IMG/VR virus record: IMGVR_UViG_3300025660_000448
Span: 1-63,072 of that record
Length of the DNA stretch: 63,072 nt
Reading direction: 5' to 3' (one strand)
Origin: a virus
Taxonomy: Duplodnaviria; Caudoviricetes
Part shown: positions 2,818 to 55,009 of the stretch, piece after piece
Layout of the letters: every line of letters starts with the position of its first letter
Position numbering within the stretch: the stretch's first letter is position 1
The notes under the pieces: model-generated
Databases searched by the model: none
Told to the model about the DNA's origin: nothing
The model's input: the letters and a program-made list of their open reading frames with translations, nothing else
Translations under genes and position numbers: made by a program

Positions 2818-3807
2818 TCAATTAGACTCAGTTTGTATCCTCTTATTTCTTATAAGTATTCTAAAATATGGGCACTTTCCATTGATCGACAAGTCCTTTT
2901 CATCATCCCCTTTTCTGAATTTAATTATTTCAAATTGATCGGGGTTAAATTTATGTAGGAATGTTATTGGTACCCCCATAGCTCCCTTGTAGTCTAATGG
3001 TATGTCTTTTGTCTTATTAACATTAATCCCATCATAATTATCATATTTCGGGTATTCAGTTTCGTTTCCAAAGTATTCCCTTGTAAGAACAATATCTTCG
3101 TGTCGTTTGTAAGTGTCTAAATTGGTTAGCCATAAGCAGTTATTAGGAGAAACTATTCTGTTTCCTAGACCATCAATCCGAGCCTCTGTTCCATAGAGTT
3201 CATAATGCTTAGGAACGATGAAACCAGAGACACCTCTACCAAGATTTATGCCCAACCACGCCTTATTTTCCTTGATTAGCTTGAAAATGTCTTTATAAGT
3301 TATCGCATTTACATTTCCAATTATTAAAAACTTTTTATCGTGTTTAACAAGTTGTTCAACATATTTCCTGAATAATGAAAACGGTGGATTAGTAACAACA
3401 ATATCTGACTTCTTCAGCAAATCAATGCTCTCCGAACTACGGAAATCCCCGTCTCCTTTAAAGTGCAAAATTTCAGGCACGCTTAGTTTATTTTTTTCAT
3501 CAGCTGTATTTCTATATTCAAAGAAAAAACCAGTTTCTTCACTCTCTTCACTAAATAAATCTCCCGATTGCTCTTTGTAGCAAGATGTTAATATCTTCTT
3601 GATTCCTAGATCTTCAAAGTTATCAGTAAAATATTTAAAGAAATTGCTTATTCTAGGGTCGTCACAATTGCAAAAAACAACTTTGTCTTTAAAGTGTGTT
3701 TTATAATGCTTCAATTCACTTTCAATATCGCAAAGCTGGGTGTAAAACTCATCACTTTTTGACTTCTTTGCTTTTTGCAATAATTGGTTTGTTGCGTTTC
3801 TTGCCAT
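2818..3807 (-). CDS. ecoRIM: EcoRI-family adenine methyltransferase (probably GAATTC)
   Basis: N-terminus MARNATNQLLQKAKKSKSDEFYTQ, GDGDFRSSESIDLLKKSDIVVTNPPFSLFR and C-terminal KDLSINGKCPYFRILI closely match M.EcoRI as I recall it. Confidence 0.93.
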   Translation of the reverse strand: MARNATNQLLQKAKKSKSDEFYTQLCDIESELKHYKTHFKDKVVFCNCDDPRISNFFKYFTDNFEDLGIKKILTSCYKEQSGDLFSEESEETGFFFEYRNTADEKNKLSVPEILHFKGDGDFRSSESIDLLKKSDIVVTNPPFSLFRKYVEQLVKHDKKFLIIGNVNAITYKDIFKLIKENKAWLGINLGRGVSGFIVPKHYELYGTEARIDGLGNRIVSPNNCLWLTNLDTYKRHEDIVLTREYFGNETEYPKYDNYDGINVNKTKDIPLDYKGAMGVPITFLHKFNPDQFEIIKFRKGDDEKDLSINGKCPYFRILIRNKRIQTESN

Positions 3808-5057: not shown

Positions 5058-6452
5058 TTATAATTTTTTATAAGATTTTATAATTTTATCAATAATTTTT
5101 GTTGTAGAAATTCCGTCAACAAGAGGAGCAAAGCATAGCTCATTAACATTTTCAGGTTTTTCCATTTTGCCTTGCCAATCCATTCCTTTTACTAAAACAT
5201 CAGGTTGAATTATTTTAATTATGTCATTCGGAGTATCTTCATAAAATGGTATAACATAATCAACAACATCCAATGCAGCTATCATTTTTATTCTTTGTTC
5301 TAATGGAATAATAGGTCTGGTGTTTCCTTTTAATCTTTTTACGCTTTCATCGGAATTAACCAACACCACAAGTTTATCTCCTTTGGATTTAGCAAACTCA
5401 AAGGTAGATATATGAGCAAAATGACAAAAATCATACACTCCATTTGTCATAACCAATTTAAAAGCCCTATCTTTCAAATCATAAGGGGATACAAATTTAG
5501 CTTTTATTGGGTCATCAATAGCTAATAATTCATAAGGAAGAACAGGCTTATTGTGTTTTTTCTGAACATATATCGACCCAGCCTTCCAAGCTAACTCTAC
5601 TGATTTTACGATATCTATACAATGAGTTTGGGTCATTGCTAAAAATGCCGCAAAACAATCACCAGCACCTATGACCGATTCACAGGGTACATGAAAATCA
5701 GGTGTGTATTGGAAATGACCATTAAGTGTCTTTCCAACAACACCTTTTTTGCCCTGAGTAATTACTACTGCTGGACACCCTAAAACAAACATAAAATAAT
5801 CACACTGCTTTTTCCAATCTTTCAATCCGCTAAGTTCATAGGCTTCTTTCTCATTTGGTTTGAATATGGAACATCCTTTCCACTTTTCTATCGGACCATT
5901 TTTAGGGTCTACAATAGTTAATAAATCTTCATTACACATCCAATTTAAATCACTATTAAACAATCCCTTTCCATAATCAGAAAAAATTACTACTCCAGAT
6001 GCCTCTTTACAGAATTTTTCATGCAACTCCCTTTGAAAATTTGTCAATGATTCATTCGATAGACCAAAATTATTAGATTCTATATCCCATCTACAAAGAG
6101 GGAAATTATCTTGATAAATTCTTTTTTTTACAGGATTTTTACCTTCCATTAAAATGCATGATTTAGAACTAATAGAAGATGAATTTAAAACGTCAAAACC
6201 ATGTGTGTCAATTAATGAATAGAACTCCACATCTACATTAAACTGTTCCATTTGACGACATACATTTCCTGCACCACCCGGAACTGCTATGTTTGGTGCA
6301 TTATTAGAAGATAGCATGACAGGTATAGGAAATTCAGGAGAAACCCTATCTGCCAGTACGTGAAAGTATTCATCTAATAAGTAATCTCCTACAACGGTTA
6401 TTTTAGACCTTGTAGAATCATTCATTTCCAAAAAGGTTTCTATATCTGTCAT
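5058..6452 (-). CDS. hldE: Bifunctional heptose-7-phosphate kinase / heptose-1-phosphate adenylyltransferase
   Basis: VGDYLLDEY, RVSPEFPIPV, GGAGNV, SDYGKG, GAGD (PfkB) followed by TNGVYDFCHFAH, NSDESVKRLKG..RPI, GISTTKII. Confidence 0.92.
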   Translation of the reverse strand: MTDIETFLEMNDSTRSKITVVGDYLLDEYFHVLADRVSPEFPIPVMLSSNNAPNIAVPGGAGNVCRQMEQFNVDVEFYSLIDTHGFDVLNSSSISSKSCILMEGKNPVKKRIYQDNFPLCRWDIESNNFGLSNESLTNFQRELHEKFCKEASGVVIFSDYGKGLFNSDLNWMCNEDLLTIVDPKNGPIEKWKGCSIFKPNEKEAYELSGLKDWKKQCDYFMFVLGCPAVVITQGKKGVVGKTLNGHFQYTPDFHVPCESVIGAGDCFAAFLAMTQTHCIDIVKSVELAWKAGSIYVQKKHNKPVLPYELLAIDDPIKAKFVSPYDLKDRAFKLVMTNGVYDFCHFAHISTFEFAKSKGDKLVVLVNSDESVKRLKGNTRPIIPLEQRIKMIAALDVVDYVIPFYEDTPNDIIKIIQPDVLVKGMDWQGKMEKPENVNELCFAPLVDGISTTKIIDKIIKSYKKL

Positions 6453-19866: not shown

Positions 19867-19902
19867 AAAACCCACTTAAATCATTTTTTAAGTGGGTTTT
19901 TT
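19867..19902. terminator. Intrinsic terminator
   Basis: AAAACCCACTTAAA / TTTAAGTGGGTTTT with A/T tails. Confidence 0.8.
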
Positions 19903-19966
19903 ATTTTTTTAGGAATTTCATCTTTGCCTCAGTATAGTCTTCAGCATCAACTTTAAAATTTTCCAT
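19901..19966 (-). CDS. Possible 21-aa small ORF
   Basis: MENFKVDAEDYTEAKMKFLKK*, AGGA RBS, directly followed by the terminator. Confidence 0.4.
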   Translation of the reverse strand: MENFKVDAEDYTEAKMKFLKK

Positions 19967-27725: not shown

Positions 27726-28757
27726 TTATAAAGCAGTTTCTTTTGAATATAATGCCTCTTCCAAATTTTCTGGCACAAGCCATTTTGAAAGGTCGCCAAG
27801 TCCTTGTTGAGATATAAAATCTTCAACCTGTTGAGCACAAATGCCTCGTGCTTTTTCAGATAAAGAACCAGATAAATTTTCACGTATATTTTTCTGTATT
27901 CTGGCGATAAACCAGTTTCTTGTTTCTTCCAACCCTTTTGACAAAGGTTTGTCAAATCCTAGAAACTTCATTACATCACTAAAATCTAACCATAAATATC
28001 CAGTCCAAGGATTGCCTTCTTTATATTTTTTAGGCCATGGTGCGTTTTTAGCCATCTCTATAAAATGAATGAGTAACCTCATCCAATTTTTTATCAGATA
28101 AGAATCAAGACATCCTTCGCCCTCAATAATTCGGAACTCTATAGTCTTTCTTTTACCTTTGCATAAGTGATACGTGTTGATGGTGTAATACTTCATTACA
28201 CCTAACAATTCGACAAGCCACTCTCCATCAATTTTTGTATCATGTTGGAATTCTGCACTCAGCCCCACCTGTTCACAATACTTGTTTCTTTTTCTTCTCG
28301 CTGGAACGGAATCCATAAACACAGATTCGCATTTAACAAACCAAGCAAGGGCTTTGCCTAAACTTCTGTTGTCAAAATCGGCCACTTCAACATGGATATG
28401 AAATCCACATTTATCATCAACAGCTACTTCAGGGTTCGTTTTCATCAATTCGACGGCTGTGCATACATCTCTGATGCCACGCCATCCTTTAATGACAGGA
28501 GAACAGACCTCAATACCAGCCGATGAATCGGGCTTCAATACCCATGATTCATTATTATGGGTATGTTCCCACTTATTGACGACAACCTGAGCGTTCAACC
28601 CTTCCATTAGGGTTTCTGCAACTTCGTCAATACCCACAGGCATTTCGTTACCTTGAAGAGGGTTAGTTTTGAAATCCCGATGGTCAAAAGAGCATATTTC
28701 TATTTCCGCTCCAAACCTACGGCACGAATCGAACTTTAGAACATTTTCTGAATCCAT
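27726..28757 (-). CDS. Putative amidoligase-family enzyme
   Basis: FGAEIE, KPDSS..IEVCSP, CGFHIHV, TIEFR. Confidence 0.82.
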   Translation of the reverse strand: MDSENVLKFDSCRRFGAEIEICSFDHRDFKTNPLQGNEMPVGIDEVAETLMEGLNAQVVVNKWEHTHNNESWVLKPDSSAGIEVCSPVIKGWRGIRDVCTAVELMKTNPEVAVDDKCGFHIHVEVADFDNRSLGKALAWFVKCESVFMDSVPARRKRNKYCEQVGLSAEFQHDTKIDGEWLVELLGVMKYYTINTYHLCKGKRKTIEFRIIEGEGCLDSYLIKNWMRLLIHFIEMAKNAPWPKKYKEGNPWTGYLWLDFSDVMKFLGFDKPLSKGLEETRNWFIARIQKNIRENLSGSLSEKARGICAQQVEDFISQQGLGDLSKWLVPENLEEALYSKETAL

Positions 28758-29513: not shown

Positions 29514-29545
29514 AAAAAAGCCCACCTTTTGGTGGGCTTTTTTTT
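29514..29545. terminator. Bidirectional intrinsic terminator
   Basis: AAAAAAGCCCACC-TTTT-GGTGGGCTTTTTTTT between convergent genes. Confidence 0.92.
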
Positions 29546-29558
29546 ATAGGCAGATAAA

Positions 29559-30764
29559 TTATGAAAGGTCTAATATTTCATCTATATCTGGTTCGTCAGC
29601 AGAATTATCATTTGCCATATCTTTTTCCACTAAATCATCCGACATAGATAATTTGTATGCATCAGAATAAACAGCTAAATAATCTTCTACCTCTTTTTTT
29701 GAATCAGCATCTACTAAAGCTGGGCATCTTAAAATCAAATCCATTGGCACATCATTTCTTTCCTTCGATGCTTTGAATTTAATTTCTTCACCTCCAGCCC
29801 AAGGCTGTTGAACTGTATACGTACCTTTTCCAACTACTCGACCAGCGCCTATCAATACTTCTAAAAGACCACCAAGAGGGTTAATTCCACTCGCAAAATA
29901 TAGCTGTACGTTAGTTGTCCCTAAAAACGGACAAAACGAACGACTCTTCTTATTTTTTAAGTTAATATTAACTCCAATTGGAATTTTTCTTTCTTTATGT
30001 TCAATTTGTTTTCTTGGCCAAGTTCTAACACGACAATTGGCATAGAACGGAAGTGCCTTACCACCGCCTGCTGTAACTTCAGGGTCACCATATGCACCTA
30101 TCGCAACTCTAGTTTGGTTGATAACAAACAAAGTAGCATTGTTTTCATCCAAGAACGGATTTACTTTTCTTAACAATCGACCCGCTGCTTTCGCACGTTC
30201 TCCGGGCTGTTCTTTTCCACCAACAATCTTTTTGAATTGTTCTTGGGTATATTCTTCAGGAAGGTTTGTCTCTTTCCATTCCCGTTCACAAGAAGATACT
30301 CCAATAGAATCCCATGCAAAAAATATTGGAATGTCATCACCTTTTTTATCCCTAATAAGTTTTGTCATGCTATAAATCTTTCTCTCCACCTCTTCAATAA
30401 AAAGTGGTGTTTGAATAATTAATTGATTTTCATCTACATGACCAGCACTAACGGCAAACCTTTCATTTGCTGCACGCTCACAGTCCAAGAGAATAGATAT
30501 TCCTCCCATTCTCTGGCAAGCCCCCAATGCTGCATAAGCAAATAAACTTTTTGCGGATGCAGGAGGACCAAAAATCTCTATAATTCCTGTAGGCCAGCCA
30601 CCACCCATAAAACGCCCCGAATTAATATAATTCAAAGCTAAATTGCCACTATCTACAAAATATCTACTATCACCCAATCCTTTTAAAACACGACCACCTG
30701 TATGTTCTGCTAAATCAGCAAAAAAATCCGTATCTTTTTCTTTTTCTTTCTTTTTCTTTGGCAT
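29559..30764 (-). CDS. uvsX: RecA/UvsX recombinase
   Basis: GPPASAKS Walker A variant, DCERA, WDS, INQTR, GGKALPFYA. Confidence 0.88.
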   Translation of the reverse strand: MPKKKKEKEKDTDFFADLAEHTGGRVLKGLGDSRYFVDSGNLALNYINSGRFMGGGWPTGIIEIFGPPASAKSLFAYAALGACQRMGGISILLDCERAANERFAVSAGHVDENQLIIQTPLFIEEVERKIYSMTKLIRDKKGDDIPIFFAWDSIGVSSCEREWKETNLPEEYTQEQFKKIVGGKEQPGERAKAAGRLLRKVNPFLDENNATLFVINQTRVAIGAYGDPEVTAGGGKALPFYANCRVRTWPRKQIEHKERKIPIGVNINLKNKKSRSFCPFLGTTNVQLYFASGINPLGGLLEVLIGAGRVVGKGTYTVQQPWAGGEEIKFKASKERNDVPMDLILRCPALVDADSKKEVEDYLAVYSDAYKLSMSDDLVEKDMANDNSADEPDIDEILDLS

Positions 30765-30798
30765 ATTTTTCCTTTTTATTTTCAATACATTCATTCAG

Positions 30799-30856: not shown

Positions 30857-31819
30857 TTACATGTTTTTCAACGCTTCAATGAACTCATCTCCATCTAACG
30901 CATCATCTTCCGGCTCCGGTGTTGCTGGCGTTGCCGCTTCCGGCTGTGCCGCTGGCTCCGGTGTTGGCTCCGGTGTTTTAGCTTCTGTTACAACAGGAGC
31001 TTCTTCAGCGGGTGCCTTCTTCTGGAATTCCGAAGGGTCGAAATCATCATCAACATCCTTCTCAAGTCCTAGATGAACCTTAAGCTCATGCTTCAACTCT
31101 TCTTCACCCTTAAGAACACGAAGAAGTGAGAGGTCGTGAAGACCATTCAACCATTTTTCTACATCTTCACCCTCTCCCAATGGAGATTCGTCAAGGAATT
31201 TAGAATCACTATAGTTTGGATAACTATTTTGACCCGACTGCCTCATCGTCTTCATCAGTTTGAAATCACGACCACCCTTGACATCCGTAACATCGCCAAG
31301 AGGCTTTTCCTCAAGTTCCTTATCACCGCAAATAGCTCTAACAATCATTCCGTAAAGAGTCTTGCCGCAACTGAAAATCTTAGGACCAACATTCTGCTCT
31401 ACTGCCTGCTTTTCTTCATTAAACTGAGAACGCACTAATACATTGTAGTAATAACGCTCAATTGGCTTAATGTCCCTTGCTTTTGCCTGCATTGCTTCTG
31501 CCTCAGATGGGTCTTTCTTCTTCGACTCATTCCAAAGCCAATGGTAATAACGACAAATCGGGCATTCTCCAACCCAACGTCTACCATCCAACTCTTTTGG
31601 ACAATGCAAACTCTTACCATTTACACGGTGAATTCTTGTTCTTACAACGAAAGGATTCGTCTCTTTCTCAAACATGCCATCGTCAGCGGGGGGAAGAAGG
31701 CGAAGTGTTAAATGTCCATTACCATCAGGCATTCTTACGAAATTCTCTAGGAATTCATTCTTACCGCCTGCTGCCAGTCTCTCTTTCTCGTTTTGTATTT
31801 CTGCTAAATTTAGTCCCAT
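30857..31819 (-). CDS. T4 gp32-like single-stranded DNA-binding protein
   Basis: LRLLP, CPIC, YYNVLV, GRDFKL, YPNYSDSKF, acidic tail. Confidence 0.85.
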   Translation of the reverse strand: MGLNLAEIQNEKERLAAGGKNEFLENFVRMPDGNGHLTLRLLPPADDGMFEKETNPFVVRTRIHRVNGKSLHCPKELDGRRWVGECPICRYYHWLWNESKKKDPSEAEAMQAKARDIKPIERYYYNVLVRSQFNEEKQAVEQNVGPKIFSCGKTLYGMIVRAICGDKELEEKPLGDVTDVKGGRDFKLMKTMRQSGQNSYPNYSDSKFLDESPLGEGEDVEKWLNGLHDLSLLRVLKGEEELKHELKVHLGLEKDVDDDFDPSEFQKKAPAEEAPVVTEAKTPEPTPEPAAQPEAATPATPEPEDDALDGDEFIEALKNM

Positions 31820-33158: not shown

Positions 33159-33761
33159 TTATTTTTGAATTATTCCAATTCCATATCTTGTATTAAAAAT
33201 AATAGGCACACGATTTTTTATATGACAAAAATCATCAAATCCACAATTAGACCCTATGTAATCAACTACTATTAACCCATCTAATTTAATGTGCTCCCAT
33301 AAAATATCTAATCTGGCTATTTGCTCTTCACTAGAAACTTCCCCGTTTACAATAGCAATATCCCATGAATCTTTAGATAATCCCTCTTGAACTTCCTCGA
33401 TAGTTCCTTCACAGATATCAAATTTTTTATGATAATTATTCTTTATGTTGGAAACCCCCATACGTGAAGAATAAAACTTCTCTGTATTCTCATGAAATAC
33501 AAACATATTCTCCACTGTATTATTTCCCTTCAAAAAACAACCACTATAAAGACCCAAATTAAAATTCCACTCAATCAAACTCTTAGCATCTACTCTTTTC
33601 CCTAAATGATAATATAAAGGAAAATATAAAGGGTCTTGATAAGCTCCGGTTAATCTAGGTTTGTCTGAAAGTAATCGAAAATTACCAAGCAAAACGCTGG
33701 AACTTATTGTTTGTTTTTTCAGGTCTTCCTGTAATTCGAGTTGTAACGATTGTATATCCAT
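33159..33761 (-). CDS. Degenerate class I SAM methyltransferase-like protein
   Basis: WDIAIVNG, IKLDGLIVVD resemble the Methyltransf_24 C-terminal part; no clear GxGxG. Confidence 0.45.
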   Translation of the reverse strand: MDIQSLQLELQEDLKKQTISSSVLLGNFRLLSDKPRLTGAYQDPLYFPLYYHLGKRVDAKSLIEWNFNLGLYSGCFLKGNNTVENMFVFHENTEKFYSSRMGVSNIKNNYHKKFDICEGTIEEVQEGLSKDSWDIAIVNGEVSSEEQIARLDILWEHIKLDGLIVVDYIGSNCGFDDFCHIKNRVPIIFNTRYGIGIIQK

Positions 33762-33973
33762 AAAAAAAGGGAACCCAAAAGAAACAATCTTTTGAACCCC
33801 CTTACCTCGGCCCGAGATTTTGTATATCTCTTTGCGATTCCATTGAGTTGTGCCTTACAAAGCATCCAACCCTCGTGTTAACTTCTCGCTGCCCTAACAA
33901 AACGATGTGCCATCCACACGAACAGGCACATTCGCCTTCTTTATTAAAGCTGAAGACGAAACTAACCAAGGCA
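33762..33973 (-). ncRNA. Candidate ~210-nt structured RNA with possible pseudoknot and 3' terminator
   Basis: Closing stem GCCUUGGUU/GGCCGAGGU, several internal hairpins, terminator GGGGUUCAAAAGA/UCUUUUGGGUUCCC + U7. Confidence 0.6.
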
Positions 33974-34002
33974 TATTATATATTCTTAATACTATAATTT
34001 TT

Positions 34003-34518
34003 TTAATCATCTTTTGAAGAAGCTATAATTTCATCTACTTCTTGGTCTAAACTGCCATCCATCTTATTTTTTGCAAAGGTATCACGATTTAACTTATCTA
34101 TTTCTTTTCTAAGCATGTGTCCTCTACTTTGTGCATTTTCATGGCATTTATCCCACGCACGTAAATGCTGCTGTAATACCTTAACTTTATGTCGAGCAGC
34201 AATTTCATGGTCCTTGGCCTTCTTGACTTCATCATCACTTTTTACCCGTGCCTCAACAAATTTATCTGAGCCACCTTCTGATTTGAATTGGGCAAACTTT
34301 TCTGAACTCATTTGGTCATGTTTAGCAGAAAAAACCTGCCACTCCGCATCAGCGTCCGCAAGCCGTTGGCCAAAATAATTATACCACACACCTTCTTCTT
34401 CTGTGTATTTGGTAAGTGTTACCTCTGAAAACGTGAGCTTTTTAGGGTCTATAACCACGTCCTGCCCAGCCACTTTTATTGTTCGTAATCCATCTAAAAT
34501 ATCATCTAATTTTGTCAT
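34003..34518 (-). CDS. UvsY-like recombination mediator
   Basis: Helical 171-aa protein, SDKFVEARVKSD, position between helicase and ssb/uvsX. Confidence 0.6.
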   Translation of the reverse strand: MTKLDDILDGLRTIKVAGQDVVIDPKKLTFSEVTLTKYTEEEGVWYNYFGQRLADADAEWQVFSAKHDQMSSEKFAQFKSEGGSDKFVEARVKSDDEVKKAKDHEIAARHKVKVLQQHLRAWDKCHENAQSRGHMLRKEIDKLNRDTFAKNKMDGSLDQEVDEIIASSKDD

Positions 34519-34520
34519 TT

Positions 34521-36104
34521 TTATCCTTCCATTCTAAAATTCACTTCCCTCTGATTGTTATCTATAAAACTTCTTACTTTCTGGTCATCATTCATTACAC
34601 TTGTTGTAGTTTCTTCTTTAGTATTACGATATTCTTTCAATATCTTTGAGTATTTCTCATAACTAATTTCTTTAATTGCTAACGTGTCATAATTAATTTC
34701 CACATGGAAAGAAAACCTACTCTTTCCTGACCTATGTTTAGCCACATATATTCGAGCAAGACCGCAATCTTTCTCTTCTTGCAATTGGTTTATGGTCCAC
34801 ATAGCGTCAAGAGGTTTTATCTGTGCATAAGAATCGCCTAGATTTTCATCGTCAATCAACTGACCACTTCTAATAACTTCTTTAGCAGACCTATTCGGCT
34901 GCATTGCTGTCAAAACTAAAACATTTTCTTCTACAGCAAACCCACGTAAATCTCTTGTCATTCTATATCTTGATTCATGCGTCGGAATCCCGGCATAATC
35001 TTTCATTTCTCCAATATAATCAATTATGACTAAATCAGGATGAAACCCACGTAACCCTAGCTGAGAGTGATATGCACGAAATGAAGCCATATCCATCTGA
35101 CCACCGGGGAACTGTTTAATTACCAACATTCGTTCTTCTTCGCAAACATCATCTTGGTATTCTTTAACAAAATCAAAAACAAGTTGTTTTTTATCAAGTA
35201 AATTATTTATCGTAATTTTATCTTCTTCCCCAACATCGGGATTTTGAATCATACTAGATAATTCAGCATCAAATCTTTCTGCGACACCATCTTGGTCAAT
35301 CTCAAGTGAAATATATAATACCTTTTTCTTCTTAGTGATATTAGCAATTGCCGCCACTTTTAAAGCTAAAGATTTACCAGTCCCACTTAATCCAACCCAA
35401 GAACCAATTTCTCCTCGCTTCATCCCTTCACCAGCAAGAGCCATGTCAATAGCTGGGAACCCAGAAGTAAATCGGTCTTGCATTTCCACATCTTTATTCA
35501 TCCTATCATATCTTTCTTCTATCGTCTGAAAATAATCTAAACCAAAATCAAAATTATGTTCAACAGTCAATGCTTCTCTAAGCACATCGTGAATAGTTTC
35601 CCATGTATCATCTGATTCTGGGTCTTCTTTGATGGCCTGTAAAGATTCACGAAATGCTTGCTTTAAAGCTTGTGTCTTTGCAAAATTAACAATCTTATCC
35701 CTATAATAATCTCTCGACTCCATACCGGGAAGATAATCTAAGATAATTTCGTTATATCCTCCAATATGAAGAACTTTAATCTCGTCTGCTTTACCATCAA
35801 GCTTCCCGTTAAGCTCATTAATCATTTGAACTCTACTGGGAAGCGTTTGATACTTATCAAAATGTTTGAAAAGAATTTCACAAATATGACGATGATTTTC
35901 ATTTATGAAATAATTAGGTTTTATAATAGCTAAACTTTCTAATAAGAAATTTCGGTCATGCAAAAGAAGACCGAGTAATTCTTTTTGAAAATCCTCATCC
36001 CATTTATAGGCATTAGTTTTCTCTGCATCAGGATTAACTAGTTTAGATAATTCTGCCGCTTCTTCTTTAGTTAACTCTATGGGTAATTGTTCAATTCCAT
36101 CCAT
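34521..36104 (-). CDS. DnaB/gp41-like replicative helicase
   Basis: GLSGTGKS, YISLE, IIDYI, TAMQPNR, AKHRSG. Confidence 0.92.
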   Translation of the reverse strand: MDGIEQLPIELTKEEAAELSKLVNPDAEKTNAYKWDEDFQKELLGLLLHDRNFLLESLAIIKPNYFINENHRHICEILFKHFDKYQTLPSRVQMINELNGKLDGKADEIKVLHIGGYNEIILDYLPGMESRDYYRDKIVNFAKTQALKQAFRESLQAIKEDPESDDTWETIHDVLREALTVEHNFDFGLDYFQTIEERYDRMNKDVEMQDRFTSGFPAIDMALAGEGMKRGEIGSWVGLSGTGKSLALKVAAIANITKKKKVLYISLEIDQDGVAERFDAELSSMIQNPDVGEEDKITINNLLDKKQLVFDFVKEYQDDVCEEERMLVIKQFPGGQMDMASFRAYHSQLGLRGFHPDLVIIDYIGEMKDYAGIPTHESRYRMTRDLRGFAVEENVLVLTAMQPNRSAKEVIRSGQLIDDENLGDSYAQIKPLDAMWTINQLQEEKDCGLARIYVAKHRSGKSRFSFHVEINYDTLAIKEISYEKYSKILKEYRNTKEETTTSVMNDDQKVRSFIDNNQREVNFRMEG

Positions 36105-36869: not shown

Positions 36870-37444
36870 CGAGTGGTTAATTTTGAAGAAGAAAGATAAT
36901 CAAATTCAGAAAGCGAGACCATTGCTTGTCTAATTCCTTTTTCCCTTGTTATCTTTTTTCCCATAGATTTCTGGGCATTCCACGTAATAGCCTTACAATA
37001 TGTGGTAAATTTCCCATCAATCTCCAAAGGCGCTTTTCTGGAAGGTCTCTCCTTAGCTGGGACCACCTTCCTAAGAATTTTATTTAGAATTTTTTCTTGA
37101 TATGGTCCGAATTTTTGACGACTAGCACCATGACGTGTTTTATTAGCCCAAAGGTCTTTTAATTCTAAAACAATTAGCGTCAACAATTCATCTTCATCTT
37201 TTACAAATTTATAACATAAATCAAGAGACTTTTCGATATAAATTTGTCTTTTGTAATATGACCCTGCTCGGATTAATGCTATTGTTAGCTCCTGAGCGAT
37301 GTCTTCTTGTTCATCCGTATGATTATTTCTGCTATTTTTTTTATAAAGCTGCCAAGCAATATAATGATTCAAATCACCGAACTTTTTGTGCAACGTCGAA
37401 TACTCTTCCTCTCCTATTGGGAAGGACTTACATATTTCATTCAT
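36857..37444 (-). CDS. Sigma-factor-like protein (region 2 only; possible late sigma)
   Basis: EDIAQE...ALIRA and KFTTY...TWN resemble sigma70 regions 2.2-2.4; no region 4. Confidence 0.55.
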   Translation of the reverse strand: MNEICKSFPIGEEEYSTLHKKFGDLNHYIAWQLYKKNSRNNHTDEQEDIAQELTIALIRAGSYYKRQIYIEKSLDLCYKFVKDEDELLTLIVLELKDLWANKTRHGASRQKFGPYQEKILNKILRKVVPAKERPSRKAPLEIDGKFTTYCKAITWNAQKSMGKKITREKGIRQAMVSLSEFDYLSSSKLTTRTHI

Positions 37445-38744
37445 CTATCCTCATTTCTTTTAATTCGTCTAAATTATCTCCAATTTTACATGAAACTTTT
37501 AACCTGAGACCTTTGAAAAATCTGTCCTCAGATTCCAATACTTCTTTAGCTCGTCTCGCTACTTTCATACTATTTTCTTTTGGCACATATAAAACATAAC
37601 CATCATGAATATGAAAAGCAACCTCGGCAAGCCCTCTCATTGCATCATATAACTCAACCAACTTGTGCAAACACAATAATGCTGCTGGGGATTGTACGAT
37701 AAAATTACGCACCTTATACGTTTGGTCAAATTCTCGGCATCTTCCGTGTATATCAATCCCCACTCCATCTACTAATAAGTTTTGTTGTGCTTGTATCCAA
37801 TCCATCGCCATTGGTAAGCGAGCATAGATTCTCTCCACCAATTTTTTTGCTGTTTCTTCCGATATTTTGTTAGCCTTTGCTACAGAAGCAACCCCTTGTC
37901 CATATACTACAGGAAGAAATAACCCTTTACATTTTTCACGAAACTTTGGTGTACTTTCCAATGCCGTGATAATCGTCCATACGGCCTCATAAATATCTTT
38001 CCCTGAATCTAATATACTTCCTAAAACTTCATCATCACTTAACCACTGGAGAACTGAGACCTCCATGTGTTTATAATCTAAATACATAAACGTTCGGTCA
38101 AAACCAATTGGTCTTAATGCTCGTCTGTCTTCAAGGCCCATTGAATGTGGGTTAAAACCATCTTGAAGAATTTTTGAGCATTTCATTCGGCCATTGACTT
38201 GGCCGTTTATTTCATAATGACTATGAAGCCGTTTTTTAAGTCCCCGGTGATTAACACCGATAGTCTCCATAGCCGGGACGACTCGTGTTATCAAAGGTAT
38301 ATATATCCCCTCATAAACTTTTTGAAGCTTTTCCCAAGAAGAATGTTGTACCACTTTAGCAAGTCTATCTTTTGCTTCTTTTAAGGATGTGGGGGCATTT
38401 TTTTCAATCCCCAAATACCATTCAAGAATTTTTAAATCATATATTTTCGAATTAAGCTCAAATGGGGCTTTTGTTTTACCTAGAATATAACTGAACAATT
38501 CTTTAAGATTCCACCCAATAATTACATTTGGTTTATCTTTACCGGAAATGTAAGTTAAGATTTGTGCTCGTATCTTCTTGAGTCCATTAAGAGCAGAAGG
38601 CCATGGAAGCTTAATATTCCCATCACCAGCCCAATGTATGTTGATGTGTGTAGGTTTATCACCTGTAAAATCACCGACATCAGGCTGAAACTCAACAAAG
38701 AGTGTTTGGCCCCATATTTTATTTAAAGCAGACGCAAAAGACAT
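37437..38744 (-). CDS. Compact family A DNA polymerase
   Basis: Motif A LDYKHMEV, motif B REKCKGLFLPVVYG, NFIVQSPAA, motif C IHDG; start reassigned to 38744. Confidence 0.85.
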   Translation of the reverse strand: MSFASALNKIWGQTLFVEFQPDVGDFTGDKPTHINIHWAGDGNIKLPWPSALNGLKKIRAQILTYISGKDKPNVIIGWNLKELFSYILGKTKAPFELNSKIYDLKILEWYLGIEKNAPTSLKEAKDRLAKVVQHSSWEKLQKVYEGIYIPLITRVVPAMETIGVNHRGLKKRLHSHYEINGQVNGRMKCSKILQDGFNPHSMGLEDRRALRPIGFDRTFMYLDYKHMEVSVLQWLSDDEVLGSILDSGKDIYEAVWTIITALESTPKFREKCKGLFLPVVYGQGVASVAKANKISEETAKKLVERIYARLPMAMDWIQAQQNLLVDGVGIDIHGRCREFDQTYKVRNFIVQSPAALLCLHKLVELYDAMRGLAEVAFHIHDGYVLYVPKENSMKVARRAKEVLESEDRFFKGLRLKVSCKIGDNLDELKEMRIDE

Positions 38745-38805
38745 TAAGAAATTATAACAAAAATGAAACTGATAATCAACCCCTTTAATTGAAAAATAAA
38801 ACTTT

Positions 38806-39237
38806 TTACTTTCGCCTCTTTCTGACCAACATGTGACCGACCTGTTTATTCCCTGCAAATGATTTGGGGAAATATCTTTTAAACAGATTCAAACTCCACC
38901 GACAAGCACCTTTTTCATTTCGGCCCATAGCATGAGCAAACTCATGTAAATATGTAACTACAGAACAATCCTCTAATACAATTAAATTCAGACTAGGTTT
39001 ATAACAACTTGGAGTTTGCCTGTTGAATACTATCCTGACATTTATTCCATATATTCCACATAACTGGCGATTTAAATATCTAAGTTTGGCCCTTCTTTCC
39101 CGTACAGTTCCCCTCCAAGGGAGAAACCTTTTAAACCTGTTAATCTCATTAATAGTGTCTTTGCGAAATTTCAGTGTGTCATCAATACACTCTTCTACCG
39201 TATCTGGATAGACTGGTTTTTTCCGTCTCTTTTTCAT
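38806..39237 (-). CDS. Basic HExxH metallopeptidase-like protein
   Basis: YLHEFAHA; paralogue of 39250-39807. Confidence 0.7.
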   Translation of the reverse strand: MKKRRKKPVYPDTVEECIDDTLKFRKDTINEINRFKRFLPWRGTVRERRAKLRYLNRQLCGIYGINVRIVFNRQTPSCYKPSLNLIVLEDCSVVTYLHEFAHAMGRNEKGACRWSLNLFKRYFPKSFAGNKQVGHMLVRKRRK

Positions 39238-39818: not shown

Positions 39819-40301
39819 CTATTTTTCACTTCTAATTTCAGCAATTATTCTTTTTGTCTCATTTCCGGCCATAACGTCACATTCTTCATTCTCTTGATGT
39901 CCAGTGTGCCCTCGAACCCAAGATGTTTCCACATCATGTTTTAATATAAGGAGGTGCAATCTTTTCCACAAATCCTTATTAGCAACCTCTTCTAATTCCT
40001 TGGTTTTATAATTTCTCTTTTTCCAACCCGCACGAACCCATTTAGGTAACCACTCAGAAATACCCTTGGTCACATACTGGCTGTCAGATGTTAGTATGAT
40101 ATTAAGCGATTTACCCACAAAAGACAAGTCTTCTAAGGCTTTTATTGGCCCCATTAACTCCATTCTATTGTTTGTAGTGCGACGTTCCCCTCCCGCACTT
40201 CTCTTTTCAGCCCCTTTGATTCGCATAATATAAGCCCACCCACCACAACTTCCGGGGATAGGGCATGACCCATCTGTAAAAATTTCTACTCTAGGCTTCA
40301 T
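39819..40301 (-). CDS. rnhA: Ribonuclease HI
   Basis: FTDGSC, TTNNRMEL, SDSQYV, NKDLW, WVRGHTG..ENEECD. Confidence 0.95.
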   Translation of the reverse strand: MKPRVEIFTDGSCPIPGSCGGWAYIMRIKGAEKRSAGGERRTTNNRMELMGPIKALEDLSFVGKSLNIILTSDSQYVTKGISEWLPKWVRAGWKKRNYKTKELEEVANKDLWKRLHLLILKHDVETSWVRGHTGHQENEECDVMAGNETKRIIAEIRSEK

Positions 40302-40920
40302 ATCGCTCCTTAAACTCATTGAAATAATTAGAGAACACCTTGGGAATATACCAACTCTTCTTAAAATCATATTCTGAAAGGGTTTCTCTATCTGATGTAG
40401 CTAAGTATGCCTGTATTTCATCTACGACAACACTTTTATCATACCCCATATCTCGTATCCACTTTGCCACTTCATTCTTTCTTTTGTAATTCTTAACCAA
40501 CTTCCTCATTGTTTTACGATATGCAGGAGAAAGTGAAAAATATGCATGTGCTTCTTCGTGAATAATATCTTCATCCTCAAATGTGCCTATTAAATAAAAA
40601 TCATCCTCCCCGTGTTTTATCACCTTTTCTACAAGGGCAATCATCTTCTTTTCTTTATCAAGTAAATCTAAAGAAAACATCTTTATAAATTTTTGATACA
40701 CTTTTCCGGGGACATTAAAACCGGACCAATCAGAACAATAAGTAAAATCACCTGTCATAAAAGCATATTCATCCATAAACTGCTCTAATGTGAAGTATTT
40801 ACCTCGTATCTTTTTAGAAGGAGATTCGTTAAACTCTTGTAATCTCATAAAAGTTGATGTTACTTGATACCTTGAATCAAATGAAATATAAATAATTTTA
40901 TCTTTTCTTTCAATTTTCAT
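40291..40920 (-). CDS. Hypothetical HExxH protein
   Basis: IIHEEAHA ... DEIQAY. Confidence 0.65.
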   Translation of the reverse strand: MKIERKDKIIYISFDSRYQVTSTFMRLQEFNESPSKKIRGKYFTLEQFMDEYAFMTGDFTYCSDWSGFNVPGKVYQKFIKMFSLDLLDKEKKMIALVEKVIKHGEDDFYLIGTFEDEDIIHEEAHAYFSLSPAYRKTMRKLVKNYKRKNEVAKWIRDMGYDKSVVVDEIQAYLATSDRETLSEYDFKKSWYIPKVFSNYFNEFKERYEA

Positions 40921-53863: not shown

Positions 53864-55009
53864 ATGTTCTGGACGTGGACAAAAAAGGAAGACCAAAAAA
53901 AATACATAAGTTGGGGTAAGCCTCGTTCAATACCCTCAGACAGCTTTAGCGAAGAAGCTCCAGATTTTGAGGTTCCAATATATTCTGGATGTCCTATAAA
54001 ACCAGAAGAGTCAGTCGTGTATATGATGCAAGGTGATGCCACTCTTGGCATGGGCGATTCTATCTGGCTCATCTCTTTTTTGAGAGATGTATATAGACTT
54101 AAAGGTAGAGGGCGATGTAGATTGGACATATGTTCTTCTACCTCTATTAATAAATTTTATTCTAACTTTCTTCCTTCAAGTATGAATCTTAGAGAAGAGT
54201 ATATCACGAAAGAAGAATTTGATACGTTTACATATAAACTACCTGCCATGTATTATTGGAAAGATGAAGATGGGGCCGACAGGTCTTGGGTAGATAATCA
54301 AAGTATTATACAACGTTTATATAATAATGTAGGTATGGAATATAAAGGTCTTCCTGATTTCGGAGATTTCACAAATGAAGAGATATTATATCCAAACAAA
54401 AATTATTATGAAAGACTTAGTATAGACAATAATGATAAGTATGTTTTATTCCAATGGCATTCAAGTGGAGAGTGTAAAAACCTTCCTCCTAAAACAAATA
54501 TAAAACTAATTAAACATATATTAAAACAATATGGATTAAAAGTTTACGTTTTTGGTCGTTTAAACTGTTTAGATAGATTAGAAGAAATAGAAGGAGTAAA
54601 AAATCTTTCTGGAAAAATAAATGCAGAAGATGTTTTCTCTTTAGCCTATCATTCAGAATTTATTGTATCTCCTGATTCTGCTGGAATACATCTTGGAGAA
54701 GCATTTAGAATCCCATCTGTTGGTATTATGTCTACTCTCCCTCCTAAATATATTGCTCATAAATATAAAATACCAAGCTTCATGTTTGGTGCTGGATTTT
54801 GCGAACATAAGCCATGTGGTGTTGTAGCAAAACTTCCTTTAAATAAATGTCCAAAAGGAACAAAAAAATATTGTGCTGTTTTACAAGACATTGACTTAGA
54901 GTTATTCGATATGTGTGTGAGAAGGAGTGAAAGAAATAGATACCTATATCGCAGAACACCTGAAGTTCCTTTTTATTGTTCACAGAAATTACCTATAACA
55001 ATACATTAA
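53864..55009 (+). CDS. Glycosyltransferase family 9 (heptosyltransferase-like)
   Basis: LGMGD, SPDSAGIHLGEAF.IP, C-terminal C...PC...C...C cluster. Confidence 0.82.
   Translation: MFWTWTKKEDQKKYISWGKPRSIPSDSFSEEAPDFEVPIYSGCPIKPEESVVYMMQGDATLGMGDSIWLISFLRDVYRLKGRGRCRLDICSSTSINKFYSNFLPSSMNLREEYITKEEFDTFTYKLPAMYYWKDEDGADRSWVDNQSIIQRLYNNVGMEYKGLPDFGDFTNEEILYPNKNYYERLSIDNNDKYVLFQWHSSGECKNLPPKTNIKLIKHILKQYGLKVYVFGRLNCLDRLEEIEGVKNLSGKINAEDVFSLAYHSEFIVSPDSAGIHLGEAFRIPSVGIMSTLPPKYIAHKYKIPSFMFGAGFCEHKPCGVVAKLPLNKCPKGTKKYCAVLQDIDLELFDMCVRRSERNRYLYRRTPEVPFYCSQKLPITIH

Follow-up and report, generated by a model that had tools for sequence, protein, structure and literature searches.

The 63,072-nucleotide IMG/VR virus record IMGVR_UViG_3300025660_000448 (hereafter the window) contains a real, evolutionarily conserved folded RNA with a pseudoknot, located in a 241-nucleotide minus-strand non-coding gap (34002..33762) that lacks a long open reading frame (ORF). 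The gap is flanked by ORFs coding for proteins of 171 amino acids (34003-34518) and 200 amino acids (33159-33761), and contains a -10-like promoter box, a multi-helix RNA of about 170-175 nucleotides, and an intrinsic terminator. An initial annotation of the sequence had placed a structured RNA in this gap of the replication cluster, and the location is borne out here. With moderate confidence, we propose that the RNA is an independent structured non-coding RNA gene of an uncatalogued family, acting in trans and located among the replication and recombination genes of very large uncultured phages. All features of the RNA lie on the minus strand and are given in window coordinates.

The fold of the single sequence is suggestive and only modestly unusual relative to shuffled sequences (-73.9 kcal/mol with z = -3.71 on the minus strand, and z = -2.85 on the plus strand), and the decisive evidence is comparative. 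The first relatives were viral and metagenome contigs retrieved with the two flanking proteins, and in the closest of these (homologous loci are labelled L, and large records G) the gap is alignable and contains compensatory changes. A covariance model of the RNA core with 173 positions (R1) gave full-length matches in far more distant loci, namely L021, L016 (GC content 0.70), L024 (where the RNA is on the opposite strand) and L025. An alignment of the 200-residue protein provided 80 further viral loci and one contig from a metagenome-assembled genome, and R1 matched in 18 of the 75 loci scanned from this retrieval. A second covariance model built from 19 sequences (R2) finds the RNA in 29 of 86 scanned loci, with 24 distinct sequences ranging in GC content from 0.35 to 0.70, on contigs of uncultured large phages. 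The total search space comprised 279 loci fetched by pattern or by neighbouring protein together with four whole records, and in the whole record G004 the RNA is present in one copy. A family member truncated at a contig end is found in a 42-kb contig of a metagenome-assembled genome titled Chloracidobacterium sp. (L225), perhaps a phage contig assigned to the wrong bin or else a clue to a host.

Pattern scans of viral contigs were less productive. The first was unspecific, returning 117 stretches, and R1 applied to 100 of them gave one true match (L062), which shares its contig with L161, whose RNA has the same score, length and GC content as the L021 RNA; the second returned 54 stretches with the RNA in three, all on contigs already found. 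The neighbourhood figures given below therefore do not come from an unbiased census. A blastn search with 2 kb around the RNA found no match among GenBank phages, and tblastn with the 200-residue protein found a single record, LR756511 (595 kb), in which R2 gives no match within 5 kb of the gene.

Covariation across the family is strong, and includes the pseudoknot. Standard base pairs occupy 91.3% of 1009 cells in the alignment of 24 distinct sequences, compared with 60.5% in column shuffles, of which none of 500 is as high, and with 34-40% when partners are offset by 1-3 columns. Changes on both sides are seen at 47 of 48 pairs, and a 19-row set agrees. The counts for the nested helices are biased upward since the model was fitted to those helices; the pseudoknot pairs were absent from the covariance model. 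The pseudoknot joins UCGUGU (33921-33916), within the loop of the long P3 hairpin, to ACACGA (33878-33873), as the initial annotation had suggested from complementarity alone, and it is paired in all 23 sequences with two-sided changes at each of its six pairs. Variants in the family include CCGUAU:AUACGG, CCAUGC:GCAUGG, CUGUGC:GCACAG and CCCAUGA:UCAUGGG. The terminator loop, considered as a rival partner for the pseudoknot strand, was rejected, as by inspection it does not covary with the P3 loop.

The remaining helices are similarly well defined. The RNA is closed by P1 (GCCUUGG 33972-33966 paired with CCGAGGU 33810-33804), all seven pairs of which have two-sided changes somewhere in the family, with 91% of cells paired. 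P3 is a long hairpin (33950-33891) with a base helix (GCUUUAAUAAA 33950-33940 and UUUGUUAGGGC 33901-33891), an internal loop GAAG (33939-33936), an upper helix (GCGAAUGUGCC 33935-33925 and GGCACAUCGU 33911-33902), and a loop L3 (UGUUCGUGUGGAU, 33924-33912) in which the bases flanking the pseudoknot strand (UG...GGAU) are conserved and unpaired; two-sided changes occur at all 21 P3 pairs, with 86-87% of cells paired. P4 (33872-33845) has an outer helix (GGGUUG 33872-33867 and CAACUC 33850-33845), a conserved GA bulge (33866-33865), and an inner helix (UGCUU 33864-33860 and AGGCA 33855-33851) closed by a UGUA loop. Its nine modelled pairs are paired in 97% of cells and eight have two-sided changes; the bulge together with U-A and G-C pairs is a conserved feature, and the inner helix has the same U-A pair in all 24 sequences. 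P5 (33830-33814) is a hairpin of five pairs (GAGAU 33830-33826, loop AUACAAA, AUCUC 33818-33814) with two-sided changes at all of them and 88% of cells paired. Covariation thus bears out four stems of the initial annotation: the closing stem, the hairpin at 33925-31/33905-11 (here a part of the longer P3), the hairpin at 33867-72/33845-50 with its inner stem (P4), and that at 33826-30/33814-18 (P5).

Two earlier proposals did not survive comparison. A 9-bp hairpin at 33952-60/33931-39 is not conserved: by inspection of the alignment L003 breaks one of its pairs, its 3' half is the P3 internal loop, and its 5' half is the conserved unpaired GUCUUCA (33957-33951) that forms the core of the P1-P3 junction strand J1/3 (GUUUCGUCUUCA, 33962-33951; alignments A11 and A12). 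Likewise, inspection shows that a switch in which UGUGCC takes a second partner near 33850-56 is not conserved in the relatives; the P3 strand varies freely while GGCAC of P4 is fixed, and so the second pairing is not kept. No consistent partner for GUCUUCA was found within the family alignments, and a helix between it and the segment following P3 was rejected for lack of a consistent register.

A further helix, P6, probably joins the segment following P3 (33889-33880) to that following P4 (33844-33834), with GCGA (33889-33886) and GUU (33882-33880) pairing with UCGC (33837-33834) and AAU (33844-33842) respectively in the window. Exact compensations are seen in L003 (GCAA/UUGC) and L004 (GUGA/UCAC), and helices of 6-9 bp can be formed in L158, L173, L150 and L153; in a crude script test 7 of the 24 sequences clearly beat their shuffles (at most 8 of 300 shuffles doing as well) and five do not at all. 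AAA (33833-33831), located between P6 and P5, is conserved and unpaired. With P6 as a probable component, the predicted fold joins P1, P3, P5 and P6 in a four-way junction; P6 runs on into P4, and the P3 loop docks on the strand between these two.

The gap is conserved to the same degree as its coding neighbours, with 61.3% nucleotide identity to L005 over the RNA and gap (flanking genes 66.2% and 62.6%), and 55.7% identity to L016 over the RNA (flanking genes 54.7% and 52.8%). A 55-codon ORF with a TTG start (33802-33969) overlaps the region, and the plus strand also folds better than its shuffles, both of which would be accommodated by a chance fold, a small protein-coding gene or an element acting at the DNA level. 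Such explanations are hardly credible, given the compensatory substitutions in the helices, the many G-U pairs on the minus strand, as noted in the initial annotation (these become C-A on the other strand), and a strand that is fixed relative to the promoter-like box and the terminator. Coding is excluded by the indels of 1 and 4 nucleotides found in the RNA among close relatives, which are not multiples of three and break the frame, and by substitutions that follow the pairing.

The RNA has gene-like boundaries on both sides. Upstream is the -10-like box TATATAAT (33982-33975), including TATAAT at 33980-33975 and ending two nucleotides before P1; it accounts for the TATATA in the initial annotation and is invariant in the six closest sequences. 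By inspection, a TA-rich hexamer (TATATA, TAAATA or TATAAT) that ends 3-9 nucleotides before P1 is clear in about 16 of 22 members and weaker in the rest. The 9-mer ATATATAAT was rejected as a general phage promoter, with 72 matches in the window compared with 57.6 expected and thus no enrichment. Downstream, an intrinsic terminator (33803-33762) lies two nucleotides after P1, and has 16 pairs followed by T7 (stem 33801-33788/33782-33769, loop UUGUU 33787-33783, T-run 33768-33762); as first proposed, it ends exactly at the next ATG (33761), which the T-run abuts. A hairpin and U-run are recognizable by eye 2-4 nucleotides after P1 in all 22 members, and about 16 of 20 have a YGU(U/G) loop (UCGUU, UUGUU, GUGUU or CGUGU) that occurs in none of eight other terminator hairpins of the window. 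The terminator loop is thus conserved and family-specific, and the hairpin looks like part of the functional RNA. The hallmarks of a free-standing small RNA are present, namely a promoter of its own (by sequence match only), a terminator of its own, and a position independent of the orientation of the flanking genes. From the -10-type box, transcription would start 2-3 nucleotides before P1 and would end at the terminator, giving an RNA of about 210 nucleotides including the terminator hairpin.

The 200-residue protein encoded downstream (33159..33761, minus strand) resembles O-methyltransferases. Pfam Methyltransf_24 is matched at E = 7.7e-4, below the curated cut-off, and the predicted structure (mean predicted local distance difference test score, pLDDT, 83.9) matches cation-dependent O-methyltransferases and TrmR with template-modelling (TM) scores of 0.5-0.6 and E values down to 7e-7; the protein thus models well as a member of the COMT/CCoAOMT/TrmR class of cation-dependent O-methyltransferases. 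Its motif I is IEWNFNLG in the window clade, compared with VE(V/F/W)GFxLG in relatives (alignment A10), so that the first glycine is replaced by Asn, and the position of the acidic residue after strand 2 varies between E, R and Q. S-adenosylmethionine binding may be weakened in some members. The upstream 171-residue protein (34003..34518, minus strand) belongs to no family in Pfam, PHROG or NCBIfam, and the nine best structural matches of its model (pLDDT 80.6) are all T4 UvsY (4zwt and 4zwq, TM scores by target of 0.7-0.8, E values only 0.03-0.2), which makes the 'uvsY' label given to the gene initially plausible at the fold level.

In each of the 21 members not truncated by a contig end, no more than 1.3 kb separates the RNA from the gene coding for the methyltransferase-like protein, and the usual order is helicase, UvsY-like gene, RNA, methyltransferase-like gene. 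There are several departures from this arrangement. Extra genes lie between the UvsY-like gene and the RNA in L016, and between the RNA and the methyltransferase-like gene in L156 and L157. L155 and L152 carry the RNA about 1.2 kb before the methyltransferase gene, with a divergent gene on its upstream side and a Glf-like, convergent one on the other, and in L024 the RNA is inverted, overlapping the methyltransferase start on the other strand and preceding an ORF that by eye reads as Hsp20-like. The next downstream gene therefore varies, and may be the methyltransferase-like gene, either of two unnamed ORFs without NCBIfam matches, the Hsp20-like ORF, or the convergent Glf-like gene. Among 11 lineages fetched through the UvsY-like protein, eight have both the RNA and the methyltransferase gene, one (L026) has the methyltransferase gene only, none has the RNA only, and two (L022 and L023/L027) have neither within the locus; among loci anchored on the methyltransferase the RNA is present in 21 of 75.

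A possible, though doubtful, alternative is that the RNA is a cis-acting leader, either a riboswitch or a protein-responsive attenuator, which senses a metabolite or phage protein and sets the extent of stopping at the adjoining terminator. Under such control would be the O-methyltransferase-like gene and the genes that follow it or, where a convergent gene comes next, an antisense transcript. The RNA is built like a large aptamer: P1 closes a multi-helix junction containing invariant nucleotides, a pseudoknot is present, and a terminator comes 2-4 nucleotides after P1 in 22 of 22 members, so that a conserved aptamer followed by an intrinsic terminator on one transcript, as required of a riboswitch, is indeed present. 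The RNA is also co-oriented with and upstream of the methyltransferase gene in all lineages but one; an ATG directly follows the U-run in the window, L005, L021 and L016, the window's own clade being the strongest case; and inspection shows that P1 of L016 can be extended by four G-C pairs into the 5' arm of the terminator, an ON-switch layout. But this extension is not found in the window or in L186, and no conserved antiterminator or competing pairing is evident by inspection, while the terminator loop, which is dispensable for an expression platform, is conserved. The downstream genes vary, with a convergent gene in L155 and L152 and an inverted RNA in L024, and other or convergent genes intervene between the RNA and the methyltransferase gene in L152, L155, L156 and L157.

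Also against a leader, seven loci (L025, L186, L187, L151, L170, L159 and L173) have a second TATATA-type, promoter-like box between the RNA terminator and the next gene, and in five of these (L025, L186, L187, L151 and L173) the box is followed by a separate covarying leader hairpin. Together, the convergent next gene in two loci, the second promoter-like box in seven, and the conserved terminator loop favour an independent non-coding RNA gene over a leader or riboswitch. The initial annotation had offered either an undescribed phage non-coding RNA or an attenuator of the methyltransferase-like gene; the strong covariation and the lack of an Rfam match support that description, and the non-coding RNA fits better.

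A second small RNA-like motif is found directly upstream of the methyltransferase-like gene in seven loci (L186 1918-1975, and starting at position 1884 in L187, 1922 in L158, 1923 in L173, 1914 in L151, 1021 in L025 and 2895 in L026). It has its own TATATA-type box in five of the seven, and a U-run often follows. Its outer stem of 9-10 bp covaries, as does an inner hairpin (GUCU...AGGC), with an asymmetric internal loop (UCAA / GAUAGG) and no Rfam match. This motif may be the actual cis leader of the methyltransferase-like gene.

Under the proposal of an independent RNA gene, the transcript would fold into the four-way junction of P1, P3, P6/P4 and P5, with the P3 loop docked between P6 and P4 by the six-pair pseudoknot. 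The docked fold would leave exposed the unpaired GUCUUCA, the GA bulge with the U-A and G-C pairs in P4, and the terminator loop, and the folded RNA may act in trans by binding specifically to a phage protein, as its scaffold, decoy or cofactor. The first candidate partner would be the O-methyltransferase-like protein, which is the most persistent neighbour. The conserved structure, gene-like boundaries and gene neighbourhood are observed, while transcription, action in trans, and the partner are inferred.

Pairing of J1/3 with the start of the methyltransferase mRNA was considered as an antisense mechanism and rejected, as across 22 loci the best matches are at differing places and are no better than in shuffles. 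Candidates included GAAGAC at +33 in the window and, in L005, GAAAAC opposite its own GUUUUC; a 12-bp match in L024 is trivial because the RNA there overlaps the gene start on the other strand.

Several observations weigh against the independent-gene proposal. A look-up of RNA sequencing runs found none listed with this stretch, three metatranscriptome runs of the same study gave no contigs, and so no evidence of a transcript was found; nor was a partner or target of the RNA identified. In the window clade, L005, L021 and L016 the methyltransferase start codon lies directly or within about 6 nucleotides after the U-run, and the gene lacks both a Shine-Dalgarno sequence and a separate promoter, so that in all of these the terminator must affect methyltransferase expression in cis. 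In the window itself the ORF starts at the last base after the U-run (33759-33768), again without either signal, and in this clade expression must depend on read-through of the terminator. The RNA is on the same strand as, and upstream of, the methyltransferase gene in all lineages except L024, as a cis element would also be. Riboswitch-controlled antisense transcripts are known, and the convergent downstream gene is therefore compatible with a riboswitch. The linkage to the methyltransferase is partly built into the sampling, as 75 of the 86 loci were fetched through that protein, and the large records G001-G003 and LR756511 have the methyltransferase gene without the RNA, showing that the protein does not need it.

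The RNA is located within a minus-strand cluster of core replication and recombination genes that includes RNase H (39819-40370), a family-A DNA polymerase (37437-38858), a DnaB-type helicase (34521-36104), a gp32-type single-stranded DNA-binding protein (30857-31819), and a RecA/UvsX-like protein (29559-30794). This setting raises the question of a replication-origin transcript like that of T4 oriF, or ori(uvsY), in which the RNA hybridises to the DNA, is cut by RNase H, and primes the leading strand. T4 oriF is described in PMC3016281 as a promoter with a sigma-70-type -10 box and a downstream unwinding element that is A+T-rich and of no specific sequence, with an R-loop that is probably processed by RNase H. 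The likeness lies in a promoter-driven RNA beside a uvsY-type gene in a cluster encoding RNase H: the RNA adjoins the UvsY-like gene, the cluster also encodes DnaB, the family-A polymerase, RNase H, gp32 and the RecA/UvsX-like protein, and a sigma-70-type -10 box of the sort described there is present (TATAAT, 33980-33975). But the transcribed part has a higher GC content than the sequence around it (0.45 versus 0.35) and is constrained by RNA pairing, in place of the A+T-rich unwinding element, which needs no specific sequence or structure, and the R-loop described for oriF in PMC3016281, and the strong intrinsic terminator releases the RNA. Furthermore, the cumulative GC skew does not turn at 34 kb, and a turn at 41-45 kb follows a change in gene orientation. 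An origin transcript is thus very unlikely.

Comparison with known RNAs identified no relatives. None of the 4227 models of Rfam 15 has a match in the window at gathering score, and there is nothing inside the gap at E<=10 or on the RNA at E<=1 in nine diverse homologous loci; ARAGORN finds no tRNA or tmRNA genes in the window, consistent with the lack of such signatures in the initial annotation. An RNase P-like reading was rejected, as GGAAAGUCC is confined to L016 and no Rfam family is matched, and a literature search found no description of the RNA. An orphan structured phage non-coding RNA is a known kind of element; as far as these searches reach, the RNA family and its architecture are new.

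The pRNA of phi29 is a phage RNA of about 120-174 nucleotides with several helices and a loop-loop pairing that covaries among sequence-divergent relatives. The RNA described here is similarly phage-encoded, with several helices and a covarying loop pairing, but its pseudoknot partners are within one molecule and it lies in a replication-recombination cluster rather than at a genome end; the Rfam library presumably includes a pRNA model, and the present RNA matches no Rfam model. As in terminating riboswitch aptamers, P1 closes the structure, the junction has invariant nucleotides, a loop forms a pseudoknot with a junction strand, and a terminator comes right after P1; the RNA differs from them in having no conserved alternative pairing, a conserved terminator loop, no match to a known class, and varied downstream genes, with the next gene convergent in two loci. 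Like the orphan structured non-coding RNAs discovered by comparative genomics, some of them phage-linked (GOLLD and ROOL; PMC12286853), it has a complex covarying fold, comes from uncultured or phage sequence, and appears free-standing. It is much shorter, at about 175 nucleotides versus more than 500 for those RNAs, resembles them neither in sequence nor by covariance model, with no Rfam match, and differs from both in being tied to one gene neighbourhood of very large phages. An IMG/VR-wide catalogue of 10,006 unnamed candidate structured viral RNAs (Fremin, Bhatt and Kyrpides 2023, PMC10690425) draws on the same data source and the same type of evidence, and may already include this motif. 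Candidates upstream of GP20, GP32 and an N-6-adenine methyltransferase are described in its main text, and the present RNA is not described there.

Almost all that is known of very large phages comes from metagenomes, and most of their non-coding content is still unread. Here, a compact RNA fold is retained from 35% to 70% GC, in the core replication-recombination cluster (DnaB, UvsY-like, gp32, UvsX-like), and stays beside one methyltransferase-like gene while other neighbours change. The four-way junction, the pseudoknot between a loop and an internal loop, and the invariant unpaired nucleotides are marks of an RNA that binds something specific. We consider it unlikely, though of interest, that the RNA is a dedicated subunit or substrate of the neighbouring TrmR/COMT-like O-methyltransferase, together forming a phage ribonucleoprotein. 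If so, a pseudoknotted RNA of about 175 nucleotides would guide, activate or sequester the enzyme, or be its methylated product, with the conserved GUCUUCA strand and the GA-bulged P4 as the recognition surface, and such a particle could be relevant to how nucleic acids are modified in genomes of the 0.5-Mb class. To our knowledge, RNA-dependent methyltransferase particles have so far come mainly from archaeal and eukaryotic box C/D ribonucleoproteins. The RNA is a concrete, synthesizable molecule for structural work, ligand or protein pull-down, and studies of termination, and its covariance model can seed an Rfam family.

The window has a completeness estimate of 13%, from which simple extrapolation gives a full genome near 0.5 Mb; its closest long relative is the 225-kb contig G004, with an estimate of 44%. 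Elsewhere in the window, a full-length EcoRI-type adenine methyltransferase is encoded at 2818-3807 on the minus strand (Pfam E = 7.7e-131), and a protein with an Amidoligase_2 domain (27726-28757, minus strand) adjoins the RecA/UvsX-like gene. Two genes are of the sugar-nucleotide or lipopolysaccharide type, one coding for a PfkB kinase fused to a cytidylyltransferase-like part (5058-6452, minus strand) and the other for a family-9 (heptosyl-type) glycosyltransferase-like protein (53864-55009, plus strand). Two hairpins, at about 19870-19904 and at 29519-29538, lie between convergent genes and read as terminators on both strands.
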